Positions 6,971 through 11,735 of a stretch of 64,000 nt of DNA are shown here, piece after piece; position 1 is the first letter of the stretch, and the number at the start of each line of letters is the position of its first letter. The notes beneath the pieces were generated by a model, which saw nothing but the letters and a program-made list of their open reading frames with translations, searched no databases and was not told where the DNA came from. A program made the translations under genes and the position numbers. Where the stretch lies: contig CAMNAK010000003.1 in NCBI GenBank assembly GCA_946530965.1, positions 8,312 to 72,311 of the forward strand, read 5' to 3'. The DNA comes from an uncultured Candidatus Saccharibacteria bacterium (GTDB lineage Bacteria > Patescibacteriota > Saccharimonadia > Saccharimonadales > Saccharimonadaceae).

Positions 6971-8002
6971 ATGGAGAAAATGAAGACCTTAAGGCCTAAG
7001 GGCTGTGTTGCTATTCTCTCGCCGTCAGCCGATACTGCCGGCTATTTTCCTCATGTCTACAAGCGTGGCGAAGCCGCCATTAAGGATCTTCTCGGTCTTG
7101 ATGCAAAGCTCTATCCTACTACTCTTTCTACGGATAATACTCCTGAAAAGCGCGCCAAAGATTTGAATGCTGCTTTCAAAGACAAAGACGTTGTTGCTAT
7201 TTTTACGACCATCGGTGGCGATGATGAAGTGCGTATTTTGAAATATCTGGACAAGGAAATAATCCGCAATAATCCAAAGCCATTCTTCGGCTACAGTGAT
7301 AATACCCATCTCAATCTATTTCTAAGTAGTCTTGGCGTGCCTTGCTATTACGGCGCTTCGATTATGACGCAGTTTGCGATGGCTGGCGGCATGGATGCTT
7401 ATACCGTTGCTTCGATTATGAACGCAATCAATCATGTCGGTGAAGTCGAAATCAAACAGCCGAGCTACTGCAAGGAGGCAGATTCTGACTGGTCTAGCGA
7501 AGAAGGCTTGAAAGTAGAAAAAGAGCGCGAAAAAGCTCTAAAAACGCAGTGGATCTCAAAACAAAAATCTGGCGAAGTTAAGGGTGAACTTTGGGGTGGC
7601 TGCCTTGAATGTATTTTCGAGTATCTTGCATCTGGCAACCCTCTAAAACTCGGCGATTCGGACAAAATTATCTTTATTGAAACTGCGGAAGATATGCCTA
7701 CGGCAGTACATGTTAAAAGTGCGCTTCAGGGTATGGGTGAGCGTGGGATTTTTAAGAATGCTAAGGCTCTACTTGTTGGTCGTCCAAAAACTCTTGCTTT
7801 CGATAAACAAATTGGCAAAAACGAGCGCATCGAATATCGCAAAGAGCAGCGAAAAATTATTAGAGACACTTTTCGTGAATATTCTGACGCGCCAATTATC
7901 TTTAATCTAAGCTTCGGCCATACCGATCCTCAGCTTGTCGTGCCATATGGTCACGAAGCTAGGATTAACCTAGAAACAAAGCAAATCTTCTTCGAATATT
8001 AA
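6971..8002 (+). CDS. S66-family LD-carboxypeptidase (LdcA/MccF-like)
   Basis: The motifs AIFTTIGGDD and the nucleophile-type FFGYSDNTHL match the S66 family, and a C-terminal His/Glu region is present. Confidence 0.75.
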   Translation: MEKMKTLRPKGCVAILSPSADTAGYFPHVYKRGEAAIKDLLGLDAKLYPTTLSTDNTPEKRAKDLNAAFKDKDVVAIFTTIGGDDEVRILKYLDKEIIRNNPKPFFGYSDNTHLNLFLSSLGVPCYYGASIMTQFAMAGGMDAYTVASIMNAINHVGEVEIKQPSYCKEADSDWSSEEGLKVEKEREKALKTQWISKQKSGEVKGELWGGCLECIFEYLASGNPLKLGDSDKIIFIETAEDMPTAVHVKSALQGMGERGIFKNAKALLVGRPKTLAFDKQIGKNERIEYRKEQRKIIRDTFREYSDAPIIFNLSFGHTDPQLVVPYGHEARINLETKQIFFEY

Positions 8003-8520
8003 GAGAAATCGCGGAAAGATTGTGAAGCTTGCGGTCCCTCGAGGCCGTTATATTTTCCGTCATACAATTTGTCGATATTGCCATACGGAACCCAAAAAGT
8101 CACCTGACCGATCGGCATGCCAGGGTAGATTTTTACTGGCTGCGTGGCGTTCAACATGAGGGTGTATTGGTTGATTGAGCCGATATCTATCAAATCAGCA
8201 GTAATATGGACAAACAATCCGAGCCTTCCTGTCGAAGATTTACCACGAATAATCGGGACGTATTCTTTTGAGCCGATACGTTCCAGAGTCGAACCAAGAT
8301 AAATCTTGCCTGGCTCCAAAACTATGCCGTCTTCTGGGATTTGAATCTCTTCGGTCTCATTGTCTTGGCGCGCATCCAAGGTGCGGTTTTTGTAACAGAG
8401 CAGGGTGTTTCCAAGATGAAAATCATAAGAATCGGTCGTAATGGAATCTGGATCAAAAGGCTCGATTACAATAATCCCATCTTTGTGACATTCGGCAATT
8501 TTGCTACCTGTCAAAATCAT
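7999..8520 (-). CDS. dCTP deaminase/dUTPase-fold protein, paralogue lacking the catalytic Glu
   Basis: GKSSTGRLGLFVH nucleotide-binding motif. The position aligned to the catalytic Glu reads YTLMLN, where the neighbouring paralogue has WTLEIR. A 4-nt overlap links it to the upstream gene. Confidence 0.75.
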   Translation of the reverse strand: MILTGSKIAECHKDGIIVIEPFDPDSITTDSYDFHLGNTLLCYKNRTLDARQDNETEEIQIPEDGIVLEPGKIYLGSTLERIGSKEYVPIIRGKSSTGRLGLFVHITADLIDIGSINQYTLMLNATQPVKIYPGMPIGQVTFWVPYGNIDKLYDGKYNGLEGPQASQSFRDFS

Positions 8521-9044
8521 GCTTTTCCTCCTGTAACTATGGCTTTGTTTTGATGTGGTGTATTGAAGCGAGTGTATCCTGCGGTATAGAGTTTGTCGAT
8601 ATCTCCGGCTGGCTTCCAGAAACTAACTTGCCCAATGCGCATACCGGCATAAACTCGCAGCGGTTGCACGACGCGAATTTCTAGTGTCCAACAATGTGCG
8701 CGGCCAAGCTGACCAAGGTCTGCCGTAATTTGTAGATACATTCCGAGCCTGCCGATCGAAGAGCGACCAATCAAACTCGTCACGAATTCTTCGCTCCCGA
8801 TCTTCTCGACCGTTGAACCAAGATATAGCTTATCTGGCTCCAAAATATAACCCTCTTCAGGGATAGTTACCTCTGTAAAATCCGCCTCTTGTCGCGGATC
8901 AATGATATCGTCCGTAACGATGCGTAGGGTTTTGCCGAGGCGATAGTTGTAGCTATTTGGATTCAATAAATTCTCAGTAAAGGGCTCAATTATTATCGAG
9001 CCCTTTTTGACCTGTTTCTGGATTTCCGAACCAGTCAGAATCAT
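8517..9044 (-). CDS. dcd: dCTP deaminase (Dcd family, catalytic Glu retained)
   Basis: MILTGSEI N-terminus, GRSSIGRLG motif, then WTLEIRVVQPLRVYAGMRIGQVSFW. Confidence 0.8.
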   Translation of the reverse strand: MILTGSEIQKQVKKGSIIIEPFTENLLNPNSYNYRLGKTLRIVTDDIIDPRQEADFTEVTIPEEGYILEPDKLYLGSTVEKIGSEEFVTSLIGRSSIGRLGMYLQITADLGQLGRAHCWTLEIRVVQPLRVYAGMRIGQVSFWKPAGDIDKLYTAGYTRFNTPHQNKAIVTGGKA

Positions 9045-9871: not shown

Positions 9872-10934
9872 GTCGTATCCTTGAAATTAAGTTCCTATCT
9901 AATTTTACAGCCTTTAATAATTTTTTGTCATCTAAGTCGCTTTCGGGCGGCAAAGACAAAAGATAATTAATTCTGCCAAGATAGAAAGAAATGCGATCAA
10001 GGATAGGGTAGTGGTTTCCGGCTTCTTTAAGGACGTCTATGGCGAGGCTAATAGCTTCCGAATACGAAAGCTCATTCACGACAAGTGCCTGGTAGGCAAA
10101 GCCACAACAATAGCTGCCCGCCATCTCGTTGACTCCGCCTTTACCCGGGGTAATCTTGTAAGCTGCAAAGTGACGCAGCGTCAGAATCGCATCGAGCATT
10201 TTGTGAGCCTTATTGTTGCCGTTGCTAAGCGTCAATGCTTCTGTTGGCAAATCTGCGAACTGAATCGGGCAATCTTCCGAGAGAATTGCGGTAAGCAATG
10301 TCTCGAGCCCAAAGCCCCATTCTACGGCTATCGGATAGTTGTTTCTTGAAATCTGAATTACGTTTCCGATATCGTATGGTTCTCCGGTGTCCTTGTTTCT
10401 GATAGCGAGCGTGAGCCCGAGGCCAGACAAATCTTCCTCCCCGTAAGTCCAACGGTAGTAGGAGGTTGTCTCGGTCTCGAGTAATATCTCGCGATCAGAT
10501 TCGAAAAGCTCCATCAGGTAACGATTTGCCTTGATGCAAATGCGCTCTTCAGCTACGCCAATCTCTTTAAGGAAAATTATAGCTGCATCAAGCATCTGCT
10601 GGAAATAATCTGCCGGAGCAATAGCACCTTCGGTTCTAAAACAGGAGCAAAAGCGCATGGCTTCGTCTGTGTAGAACAGGTGCATATTCTGCAAGCGGAT
10701 GCAGTTTTGCGGATTTGCAAAGTAGCCTAAGTCGTCAAGCTTTTCTTTCCACTGGTTAATCTGGGCGCCAACGAAATAAACCGTCGGGTCCGTCGATGGA
10801 TAGCTTGGCACTTCGTCTAAAATCGTAAAACCGCGACTTCTGAAACCGTCGAGAAAGACTTTTTCGATATAGTCTTTTACCTCGGCGATTAAGGCGCGCC
10901 ATCGGATGAATTCGAGTATAGCAATCTTGTTCAT
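9849..10934 (-). CDS. Stand-alone alanyl-tRNA-synthetase-like catalytic core (class II aaRS fold), 361 aa
   Basis: FLDGFRSRGFTILDEVPSYPSTDPTVYFVGAQINQWK, NCIRLQN and VEWGFGLETLL align with the AlaRS N-terminal motifs FLDFF.SKGH...NDPTLLFTNAGMNQFK, RCVRAGG and VDTGMGLER as I recall them. The tRNA-recognition, editing and C-Ala domains are absent. Confidence 0.6.
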   Translation of the reverse strand: MNKIAILEFIRWRALIAEVKDYIEKVFLDGFRSRGFTILDEVPSYPSTDPTVYFVGAQINQWKEKLDDLGYFANPQNCIRLQNMHLFYTDEAMRFCSCFRTEGAIAPADYFQQMLDAAIIFLKEIGVAEERICIKANRYLMELFESDREILLETETTSYYRWTYGEEDLSGLGLTLAIRNKDTGEPYDIGNVIQISRNNYPIAVEWGFGLETLLTAILSEDCPIQFADLPTEALTLSNGNNKAHKMLDAILTLRHFAAYKITPGKGGVNEMAGSYCCGFAYQALVVNELSYSEAISLAIDVLKEAGNHYPILDRISFYLGRINYLLSLPPESDLDDKKLLKAVKLDRNLISRIRHEKQRTL

Positions 10935-10946
10935 GTTATCCCCCCC

Positions 10947-11735
10947 CTAACTAAAGTTGATTGCTGTGTGAAACATCTCCCAATAATTCTTGTCAAAAAC
11001 AGTATCTGTCTCTGAAGGACGAATCGCAAGATGAAGTAAAACATTCTTGTGGTTCGGCGTAGCCCCGAGGCGTTTTCTTGCTGCCGGAGGCAAATCCTTG
11101 AAGCTTGTTACGCTCAAAATCTTGAGCTCTTCGAGATACTTAGCATCTTTGCCGAGCATTTTGATTACGTCCTGCAGGATTGCGTCTTGCTGATAGTCTT
11201 TCGGTACAAGATAAGAGAAATCTCTCGAGATTCGCTTCTGTTGTGCTACGGGTGTAAATTCGAGCAAATCATACATCTGACAAGCAATCTCTGGCTCGTT
11301 CGAAAACAGGTACGATATATGCGGAATCTTTTTGTAGGCAGCAAGCATAGAATCCAGTTTGACTGTGATAAGTTTCTCGCTAATGCAAACAAACTTATCT
11401 ACTGCTTCGCTATCGTCAGGAAATGCCTGATTGATCAAGCGATATAGTCTACCGCCAACGCTAGGATCAAGCGGAAGGTCTAACAGGATGTTATAAAGAC
11501 CTTTCTCTCGATCGACTCCGTCAAGACTAAGCGTGGTTCTTGAATCTAGGGATGATGTGTTGGTGTAGTTAACGATTTCTGTTGCCAGGATAGCTAAAGC
11601 GTGGCGCTCGTTAAAGAGCTCTCTGCCATTGTCTAGCTTCTTGGCATCGTACATGGCACCCCAAAGGATAGGGGTATCTCCGTCATAATAAGACAGCAAA
11701 ACAATCACGACCTTTCTTGAAATATCAATGTGCAA
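10947..11735 (-). CDS. Hypothetical protein, first gene of the five-gene operon
   Basis: ORF of 262 codons from a TTG. The start is uncertain (no good SD; alternative ATG at M28). It lies 12 nt upstream of the AlaRS-like gene. No recognisable motif. Confidence 0.45.
   Translation of the reverse strand: MHIDISRKVVIVLLSYYDGDTPILWGAMYDAKKLDNGRELFNERHALAILATEIVNYTNTSSLDSRTTLSLDGVDREKGLYNILLDLPLDPSVGGRLYRLINQAFPDDSEAVDKFVCISEKLITVKLDSMLAAYKKIPHISYLFSNEPEIACQMYDLLEFTPVAQQKRISRDFSYLVPKDYQQDAILQDVIKMLGKDAKYLEELKILSVTSFKDLPPAARKRLGATPNHKNVLLHLAIRPSETDTVFDKNYWEMFHTAINFS

Follow-up and report, generated by a model that had tools for sequence, protein, structure and literature searches.

Introduction

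The toxic cores of ascamycin, microcin C (McC), agrocin 84 and albomycin mimic aminoacyl-adenylates and inhibit aminoacyl-tRNA synthetases (aaRSs). In the ascamycin pathway, AcmD, an extra alanyl-tRNA synthetase (AlaRS), supplies Ala-tRNA and resists the product, AcmF moves Ala from Ala-tRNA to the sulfamate NH2 of dealanylascamycin, and the hydrolase AcmE takes the alanine off (PMC12945691). AcmF is a truncated AlaRS-like protein comprising the aminoacylation and tRNA-recognition domains only; it retains Arg93 and aromatic residues, has lost most ATP-binding residues and carries N219Q and D232E, Glu232 being essential (PMC12945691). For agrocin 84, the aaRS-like enzyme AgnA is proposed to form the P-N bond, AgnB1 is an S-adenosylmethionine (SAM)-dependent enzyme with no assigned step, and AgnB2 is a self-resistance LeuRS (PMC8323819). 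McC-type inhibitors with a cytidine (pyrimidine) nucleotide are also known, and AbmE and MccY decorate the cytosine in albomycin and cytidine-type McC (PMC8323819). Here we describe a six-gene module in a 64,000-nucleotide stretch of the genome of an uncultured Saccharibacteria bacterium (contig CAMNAK010000003.1, assembly GCA_946530965.1; the window) whose parts come from known families and whose overall logic resembles that of these aaRS-inhibitor pathways.

We label the five minus-strand genes of the module g1 to g5, in transcription order, and the convergent S66 peptidase gene g6. From sequence comparison, we put at about even the chance that the module makes an N-aminoacyl pyrimidine-nucleotide of the aaRS-inhibitor type and has a built-in hydrolytic self-protection. 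Our literature search returned nothing on MccD-, MccF- or AcmF-like genes in Candidate Phyla Radiation (CPR) bacteria or DPANN archaea, nor on this combination of genes, in agreement with the initial annotation of the window, which had not recognised the combination as a described system.

Results

Conservation of the module in CPR bacteria and DPANN archaea

Orthologues of g2, g3, g4 and g5 occur together in every context that we sampled among CPR bacteria and DPANN archaea. The module recurs in at least ten independent genomic contexts, in Saccharibacteria, Nomurabacteria, other CPR bacteria, Woesearchaeota and one 309-kb contig that does not look like CPR, so it is not confined to Saccharibacteria but is widespread in CPR bacteria and present in DPANN archaea. 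The order g3-g4-g5 is constant, the remaining genes are reshuffled, and g6 is present in most contexts. Comparison of the window with a 96%-identical relative gave dN/dS values of 0.03–0.25, and all six genes are under purifying selection. Since the module is found in at least ten independent contexts and selection acts on all six genes, the arrangement is far beyond chance. The initial annotation had read the locus as one functional module, and co-occurrence with reshuffled order in this many contexts bears that out. Profile matches likewise agree with its description of the set as pyrimidine-(deoxy)nucleotide enzymes accompanied by a SAM-dependent and an aaRS-like enzyme. It had, however, taken the five minus-strand genes as the whole unit and overlooked the convergent g6 (6971–8002), which adjoins the module in most other contexts.

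The individual versions, numbered here as loci, differ in their arrangement. In L001, g6 lies divergently upstream and leuS convergently downstream, whilst in L005 g6 is the sixth, co-directional gene. The full set is found in L047 (Nomurabacteria) and, with an extra methyltransferase, in L056 and L057. The Woesearchaeota loci (L058–L060) have the order g2-g6-g3-g4-g5 and no g1, L061–L063 are arranged as two divergent operons, and the 309-kb contig (L064) carries g2-g3-g4-g5, then a gene for a 372-aa protein, then leuS. L068 contains g1–g5 and lacks g6. L067 combines the module with a mini-AlaRS, a divergent AlaRS-like protein, a pyridoxal phosphate (PLP) decarboxylase resembling the N-domain of MccE, and a NodU-type carbamoyltransferase.

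Identities between the window and the distant versions are 49–64% for g3, 47–64% for g4 and 51–67% for g5, and 28–41% for g2 and 27–44% for g6. The g2 and g6 genes, which are adjacent and overlapping in some versions, diverge in parallel. Strong conservation of g3–g5 and weak conservation of g2 and g6 would fit a pathway in which the nucleotide moiety stays the same and the aminoacyl moiety varies.

The AlaRS-like protein g2 resembles AcmF

The second gene (g2, 9849–10934, minus strand) encodes a truncated AlaRS-like protein of 361 aa. Only its N-terminal part matches tRNA-synt_2c (E = 1.3e-6, under the Pfam cut-off), and against the alaS model TIGR00344 it scores 26 bits, where the cut-off is 457. 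The AlphaFold2 (AF2) model has a predicted local distance difference test (pLDDT) score of 85, and Foldseek matched it to AlaRS catalytic fragments with a template-modelling (TM) score of 0.67. The model aligns over about 420 columns with a 441-aa AlaRS catalytic fragment and superposes on both of its domains, the catalytic and the helical tRNA-recognition domain; the editing and C-Ala domains are absent.

We surveyed the key residues in 151 family representatives, no two of which share more than 50% identity, using E. coli AlaRS numbering (reference sequence checked for residues 7–138). The motif-2 Arg is present in all 151 and the base-stacking Phe in 150. The position of AlaRS Asp235 is occupied by Glu in 138 representatives and by Asp in one (E205 in the window), and the motif-3 Arg position holds Arg in none of the 151. 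At the N212 position Asn is found in 136 (N191 in the window) and Gln in four, the Woesearchaeota version among these. An exhaustive profile search (E ≤ 1e-10) defined the family as 347 clusters at 50% identity, all of them stand-alone proteins of 229–520 aa, and corrected an impression of rarity given by a word-indexed protein search (7 clusters) and a metagenome scan (1 extra locus).

A protein of 361 aa that falls below the TIGR00344 cut-off and has no motif-3 Arg is, judged by these features, not a canonical alanine-tRNA ligase. We propose that g2 is an AcmF-type aminoacyl-tRNA-dependent transferase, by comparison with the published description of AcmF. The initial annotation had suggested ATP-dependent amino-acid ligation; because g2 lacks the motif-3 Arg and carries the AcmF-type Asp-to-Glu change, that reaction is disfavoured and aminoacyl-tRNA-dependent transfer appears the more likely activity. 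The broader suggestion of an aminoacylated nucleotide metabolite, with ascamycin as the lead, was a good one, AcmF being a documented AlaRS-like enzyme (PMC12945691).

Comparison with the ascamycin pathway of Streptomyces sp. 80H647 reveals both common and distinct features. g2 is AcmF-like in its two-domain build and its Asp-to-Glu change, and g6 would fill the role of AcmE. The missing motif-3 Arg may be a further parallel, to the ATP-binding residues that AcmF has lost, but g2 keeps the motif-2 Arg and the stacking Phe, as AcmF does (Arg93 and aromatic residues). In L067, a 433-aa, near-canonical mini-AlaRS (440 bits on the alaS model, with the Asp and the motif-3 Arg kept) is encoded together with an overlapping gene for a 402-aa divergent AlaRS-like protein in which the Asp-to-Glu change is present, an arrangement that resembles the AcmD/AcmF pair. 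However, most g2 proteins keep Asn where AcmF has N219Q, and the acceptor cannot be a sulfamate since genes for sulfur activation are lacking. In place of chloroadenosine the module presumably uses a pyrimidine deoxynucleotide, the hydrolase is an S66 peptidase rather than an alpha/beta hydrolase, and the aaRS partner in the window lineage is a decayed PheRS-like protein.

g3 is related to MccD and AgnB1

The third gene (g3, 9044–9871, minus strand; 275 aa) encodes a SAM-dependent transferase of the MccD/AgnB1 family. Profile matches place it in the class I SAM-dependent fold. Its best match in the PDB is 5FCD, annotated 'MccD' (E = 4.9e-29, residues 8–261 against 10–265 of 267), and the match after it reaches only 4e-3. 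It shares 32% identity with MccD from the E. coli plasmid over 254 aa (E = 5e-33) and 27% with AgnB1 of pAgK84 across 97% of the length. The three proteins are collinear in alignment and have a common N-terminal motif, Y.DF...Q.N.PPG, and the full-length homology to MccD includes the N- and C-terminal extensions around the Rossmann core. Thus, the earlier assignment as a SAM methyltransferase holds for the class I SAM-dependent fold and needs refining for the family: because g3 is MccD/AgnB1-like, it may, by analogy, transfer 3-amino-3-carboxypropyl (acp) instead of methyl. Homologues with at least 49% identity form at least 376 clusters.

The resemblance to microcin C extends beyond g3, which is MccD-like over its full length. 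The g6 protein is MccF-like, with the triad and the equivalent of W186, and its gene is convergent at the end of the operon, as is mccF on E. coli plasmids. Directly upstream of the g3 orthologue in L067 lies the gene for the PLP decarboxylase related to the MccE N-domain (E = 6e-12), and this pair mirrors the MccD-plus-MccE1 aminopropylation pair and lends indirect support to acp transfer; the NodU-type carbamoyltransferase of the same locus recalls AbmE and MccY. In contrast to microcin C, there is no MccA precursor peptide, ThiF-like MccB, MccC pump or GNAT here, and annotation of the module loci revealed no ThiF-like MccB gene in or near any of them. The aminoacyl part would come from aminoacyl-tRNA and not from a ribosomal peptide, and DCD-fold enzymes, such as those encoded by g4 and g5, are unknown in mcc clusters.

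On pAgK84, the AgnB1 gene lies between the gene for an 'asparagine synthetase A'-type class II ligase (agnA) and leuS (agnB2). The agnA-agnB1-agnB2 group joins a class II aaRS-like enzyme, an MccD-like SAM enzyme and a LeuRS, and our module sometimes adjoins leuS. The core of the agrocin 84 product, TM84, is an N-acyl phosphoramidate nucleotide. However, AgnA is AsnA/AspRS-like, and we discarded it as a specific relative of g1 or g2 since there was no significant similarity to either. The agn cluster differs further in having 17 genes, including sugar and opine-mimic parts, and the neighbour in the window is serS and not leuS. Two NUDIX hydrolase genes are found near the agn genes (pAgK84, L053, 6958–7899). 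NUDIX enzymes convert NTP to NMP and pyrophosphate, and may, by analogy, correspond in function to the dUTPase-fold genes of the module.

g6 is an MccF-like peptidase

The g6 gene (6971–8002, plus strand; 343 aa), convergent with g5, encodes an MccF-like S66 serine peptidase, with profile matches to Peptidase_S66 and S66C. Its best PDB matches are the MccF-like Ba3275 of B. anthracis (E = 4e-48) and MccF (1e-20 and 3e-14), and the match to LdcA is only partial (9e-13). The triad motifs GYSD, ETAED and FGHTDP align with MccF S118, E243 and H311 and are conserved in all orthologues. W174 of g6 aligns with W186 of MccF, the interdomain-loop residue that stacks on the nucleobase (PMC8323819). This Trp is invariant in all nine module-associated S66 proteins, including the archaeal one. 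In most contexts the gene is a direct neighbour of the module, and three orientations occur. Woesearchaeota, as archaea, are not expected to have murein, and because g6 is kept in a Woesearchaeota archaeon a murein role is argued against. We propose that g6 hydrolyses the amide bond of an aminoacyl-nucleotide, for self-protection or turnover, given its likeness to MccF.

Alternatively, the module could be a resistance or detoxification island, directed against the aminoacyl-nucleotide antibiotics of a host or competitor and synthesising nothing itself. The MccF-like protein would cleave the toxin, the DCD-fold and MccD-like proteins would process the nucleotide so released, and the AlaRS-like protein would serve as decoy or in repair. 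McC resistance is commonly conferred by MccF homologues that stand alone (PMC8323819), g6 looks cytoplasmic, with no obvious signal peptide in its translation, and the module loci encode no exporter or carrier moiety. Such an island would not be expected to include relatives of MccD and AgnB1, which are biosynthetic tailoring enzymes and not resistance factors, or an AcmF-type enzyme, which constructs an aminoacyl conjugate. Moreover, the MccE-type decarboxylase, carbamoyltransferase and extra methyltransferases of some versions are typical tailoring genes, and the other genes persist in L064 and L068 where the S66 gene is missing. We regard a resistance island as rather unlikely. The gene that occupies the usual S66 slot in L064, between g5 and leuS (8858–9976), encodes the 372-aa protein, which has no Pfam or NCBIfam match and may be an alternative immunity or hydrolase gene.

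g4 and g5 form a complementary DCD-fold pair

The two DCD-fold paralogues, A (g4, 8517–9044, minus strand; 175 aa) and B (g5, 7999–8520, minus strand; 173 aa), share 46% identity. Both match PF22769 DCD (E = 8e-36 for g4 and 6e-39 for g5), and on TIGR02274, with a cut-off of 92.8 bits, g4 falls below (81 bits) and g5 above (96.4 bits). Among solved structures they are most closely related to the enzymes from M. tuberculosis and M. jannaschii, and we aligned them to the structure of the bifunctional Dcd:Dut from M. tuberculosis (2QXX). The catalytic Glu (E138 in E. coli, E129 in M. tuberculosis) is kept in g4 (TLE) and replaced by Met (TLM) or Gln in g5, whereas the motif-3 Asp (IDPG) is replaced by Gln or His in g4 and kept in g5 (LIDIG). 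Motif 1 (SxDxR) has Asn in g4 and Asp in g5, and the C-terminal lid is only partly kept in g4 and is kept in g5, which also retains the Ser/Arg phosphate motif. The complementary losses are invariant in nine orthologous g4/g5 pairs, including the archaeal ones, and hidden Markov model (HMM) assignment across the loci always gave a g4-type first and a g5-type second DCD gene. From these residues g5 is predicted to be deaminase-dead, and the invariance of the complementary pattern suggests that g4 and g5 form an obligate pair with divided labour.

In fold and in nucleotide-binding motifs g4 and g5 agree with the described Dcd and DCD-DUT enzymes, and they differ in that each paralogue has lost one key residue (the motif-3 Asp in g4, the catalytic Glu in g5) and in that they are always an adjacent, translationally coupled pair within the module. 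The initial annotation had considered a non-canonical dUMP/dTMP salvage route, which we do not favour: it fails to explain the constant AcmF-, MccD- and MccF-like company and leaves the complementary active-site losses of the paralogues unexplained.

Paired Dcd and Dut enzymes of the DCD family exist in archaea, and g5 exceeds a curated dCTP-deaminase cut-off, both of which would suit a collection of co-travelling housekeeping genes made up of Dcd and an archaeal-type dUTPase, a small AlaRS, a murein-recycling LdcA and an unrelated methyltransferase. Small AlaRS forms are likewise described in CPR and DPANN (bioRxiv 10.1101/2023.05.29.542759). We consider this account very unlikely. It is at odds with the invariant loss of the catalytic Glu in g5 and of the motif-3 Asp in g4, with the score of g2 (26 against 457 bits), its missing motif-3 Arg and its missing editing domain, and with the retention of a 'murein' S66 peptidase in Woesearchaeota. 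The gene set also keeps together across domains of life in wholly different surroundings, and the identity of g3 between bacteria and archaea (49–64%) points to recent transfer of an accessory module.

L058 and L059 are two assemblies of a single Woesearchaeota module, in which g5 is split into pieces of 67 and 91 aa in L058 (8306–8847) and g2 into pieces of 194 and 131 aa in L059 (478–1454). An unbroken copy of either gene is found in the other assembly or in L060, and the splits are assembly or frameshift errors or ongoing decay.

g1 is a decayed member of the SrmL lineage

The first gene (g1, 10947–11735, minus strand; 262 aa, TTG start) had been called an orphan. It is instead a degenerate PheS-related member of the SrmL lineage, in which only the ferredoxin-fold anticodon-binding (FDX-ACB) domain is intact. 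The NCBIfam model NF051887, titled 'PheS-related mystery ligase SrmL', matches residues 127–242 only (E = 2.7e-26, 92.5 bits against a cut-off of 300), whereas the 393-aa orthologue in L001 exceeds the cut-off with 302.8 bits. The family is built from a PheS core and an FDX-ACB domain, as in mitochondrial PheRS, with conserved class II motifs. Alignment shows a stepwise decay of these motifs, from intact in L047, through partly kept in L001 and degenerate in L004, to lost, in a truncated protein, in the window, where all three are gone and the FDX-ACB fold is retained. The AF2 model of g1 has an overall pLDDT of 59 and is confident at residues 127–250 only, so that it is interpretable for the C-terminal domain alone. 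A Foldseek search with this domain returned human mitochondrial PheRS (3TUP) as the top match, followed by PheT B8 domains; structure prediction, which had been advised for this gene, thus recognised an FDX-ACB domain of the PheRS type. The dN/dS value of 0.25 indicates purifying selection that is relaxed.

Canonical pheS and pheT genes are present elsewhere in the window (37790–41193), so g1 is not the housekeeping PheRS. Just upstream of these two genes lies a gene whose 951-aa product carries adhesin-type domains, MucBP and Muc_B2 (32455–35310, minus strand), and beside it one whose 491-aa product has an aquaporin-like MIP domain at its C terminus (35980–37455, minus strand); the episymbiont may use these genes for attachment to the host or for uptake.

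We scanned genomes with an alignment of eight SrmL sequences and obtained 46 SrmL-like loci in GTDB (L007–L052). The module is missing from 45 of them and no partner gene is conserved, by which we rejected the idea that SrmL always accompanies the module; g1 is, for the same reason, a lineage-specific recruit to it. The gene is also missing from the DPANN, L061 and L064 versions, and as comparison with SrmL makes clear, the window protein derives from that lineage but is far under its cut-off and has lost its motifs. A literature search for 'SrmL' found nothing. The SrmL family (P0009–P0051) is wide in CPR, its members being of the mitochondrial-type monomeric PheRS-like kind with class II motifs intact; gyrB or thrS is often near the SrmL loci, and two paralogues occur in L036 and in L048.

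The retention of the anticodon-binding domain in g1 and of the AlaRS tRNA-recognition domain in g2 is what one would expect of a system for the modification or aminoacylation of tRNA or another nucleic acid, in which g1 and g2 present tRNA to g3 and the DCD-fold proteins. Transfer of acp to tRNA and rRNA bases is known, and aaRS genes and a KTI12/PSTK-like kinase lie nearby. However, DCD-fold enzymes enclose free dNTPs, and g5 keeps its triphosphate motifs and C-terminal lid. MccD and MccF act on small nucleotide conjugates (PMC8323819), g1 is dispensed with in the DPANN, L061 and L064 versions, and scanning the window for Rfam families and tRNA genes gave no hits, no tRNA gene accompanying the module. 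A role in nucleic-acid modification is, in our view, improbable.

aaRS genes beside the module

The gene leuS lies within 5 kb of the module in four of ten contexts (L001, L047, L064 and L058/59), with a naive P of ~2e-5 that was computed on four of the first eight contexts. As a universal neighbour leuS was rejected, being absent from L067 and L068, which served as a prospective test. trpS is found beside the DCD pair, in its bacterial type in L061 and its archaeal type in L058, and a mini-AlaRS or SrmL gene is also near the module in some contexts. In the window the divergent neighbour of g1 is serS (11839–13146, plus strand), encoding a SerRS of 435 aa, with Seryl_tRNA_N and tRNA-synt_2b domains as seen at the orthologous locus, L002. 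It is an uncertain member of the module; by analogy with the aaRS genes beside other versions, it is possibly the partner that supplies aminoacyl-tRNA, or the target. The varied aaRS neighbours, together with the parallel divergence of g2 and g6, would fit variants that use different amino acids.

Small nucleoside- or nucleotide-kinase-like genes follow the DCD pair in two lineages. In L061 (9038–10475) and L058 (9465–11119) a small P-loop kinase-like gene (AAA_33/KTI12/dNK-like) and trpS stand beside the pair. Each TrpRS is of the type native to its own domain, bacterial or archaeal, which suggests that the linkage is independent or selected.

Genomic surroundings

A ParE/PhdYeFM toxin-antitoxin pair lies beside the S66 gene of the module in L001 (4349–4854), and Fic, PIF1 and SNF2 helicase genes flank the module in L056, L057 and L061, consistent with its location in variable, mobile genome regions. 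Neighbours such as ParE/Phd, Fic and helicases, along with an accessory, patchy distribution that is prone to horizontal transfer, might speak for an anti-phage or conflict system that, upon infection, would deplete or alter the pool of dCTP/dUTP or produce a modified nucleotide. PADLOC gave no matches for g1, g2 or g5, and for g3 a generic methyltransferase-domain match only, with a weak likeness to the methyltransferase domain of MADS mad2. The g3 family was not found on viral contigs and there is no evident sensor/effector architecture. An anti-phage function would leave the parallels to MccD, MccF and AcmF unexplained, and we think it hardly likely at all.

Junctions and transcription signals

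Reading the sequence confirmed the five minus-strand open reading frames, with the gap and overlaps that had been described for them. g1 and g2 are separated by a 12-nt gap containing GGGGGGG, a Shine-Dalgarno-like run; g2 and g3 overlap by 23 nt, the g3/g4 junction is TAATG and the g4/g5 junction ATGA, and the 3' end of g5 overlaps g6 by 4 nt. The family assignments first made for g2–g5 were mostly right by profile matches, that of g1 being the one that fell. A TATAAT is present, as had been noted, on the minus strand at about 11756–11761, inside the 103-bp divergent intergenic spacer between g1 and serS (11736–11838), but a consensus scan of this spacer for the minus strand found no strong -35/-10 pair to go with it.

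The earlier statement that the operon has no internal terminator hairpin needs amending. A terminator-like hairpin lies within g3 (9639–9669, minus strand), with a 14-bp stem and a T-rich tail (ATACCGGTTG...CAACCGGTAT). It is kept only in near-identical relatives and is missing from the distant orthologue L001, and since it is not conserved there we dropped it as an internal terminator; the hairpin is probably incidental to the coding sequence.

Discussion

We propose that the six genes form one module that would make and control a small conjugate, an N-aminoacyl pyrimidine-nucleotide, resembling in general type the toxic cores found in ascamycin, microcin C, agrocin 84 and albomycin. In this model g4 and g5, probably as a hetero-oligomer, would act on dCTP/dUTP to give a pyrimidine deoxynucleotide scaffold, with g4 as the deaminase-competent partner and g5 binding or processing the triphosphate. 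g2 would then move an amino acid from a charged tRNA to an amino group on the pyrimidine nucleotide. In the window genome g1 may contribute only a tRNA anticodon-binding domain, and in other lineages an intact PheRS-like g1 or a partner aaRS would supply the aminoacyl-tRNA, as AcmD does for AcmF. g3 would alkylate the conjugate from SAM, with 3-amino-3-carboxypropyl or methyl, and g6 would cleave the aminoacyl-nucleotide amide bond for producer protection or compound recycling. The four rivals set out above are each rated below this model.

For the amino group itself, one candidate source is the deamination step. Ammonia released by g4 could replace water in the attack by g5 at the alpha-phosphate and yield a nucleoside 5'-phosphoramidate, the NH2 of which would be the acceptor for g2. 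That g5 uses the ammonia in this way is a long shot, though a 5'-phosphoramidate acceptor would explain the constant presence of a DCD pair beside relatives of enzymes that handle N-acyl phosphoramidates and sulfamates.

Several points weigh against the proposed conjugate pathway. Every functional step rests on homology, and the likeness of g2 to AcmF is drawn from the published description of AcmF rather than from its sequence. N212 is kept in most g2 proteins, whereas AcmF has Gln, and nothing points to the source of the NH2 acceptor. We know of no DCD-fold enzymes in any described aaRS-inhibitor pathway. No exporter is conserved among the module loci, they encode no peptide, siderophore or opine as a Trojan-horse carrier, MccB and MccA are absent from them, and the window has no MccE-type decarboxylase. 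S66 is missing in L064 and L068. The type of aaRS beside the module is not constant, and the adjacent aaRS is probably the only copy in these tiny genomes, so it would not be a spare, resistant enzyme.

A bolder extension is that CPR and DPANN share, by horizontal transfer, a hitherto unrecognised pathway for a family of aminoacyl-deoxypyrimidine-nucleotide antimetabolites that inhibit aaRSs and are aimed at the host. The amino acid (Leu, Trp, Ser, Ala or Phe) would be set by the fast-evolving AcmF-like transferase and its partner aaRS, the heteromeric DCD pair would carry out a new reaction, a candidate being dCTP to deoxyuridine 5'-phosphoramidate by way of the released ammonia, and the compound would arrest or manipulate the host cell. 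We hold this extension to be unlikely as a whole. Nonetheless, it is realistic to think that the DCD pair may perform new chemistry and that the module may have a new biological role in episymbionts.

The module provides several leads for enzymology: a large family of proposed AcmF-like tRNA-dependent aminoacyl transferases, MccD-like enzymes that occur outside ribosomal-peptide pathways, and a DCD-fold pair whose complementary active-site losses may underlie new nucleotide chemistry. It also places part of the SrmL lineage of 'mystery ligases' in a functional context for the first time. Its product might offer a new scaffold for aaRS inhibitors, and the six genes are small enough for joint expression. 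CPR bacteria and DPANN archaea are generally regarded as having almost no secondary metabolism, and in these lineages the module could be a widespread candidate for a weapon or a control molecule.

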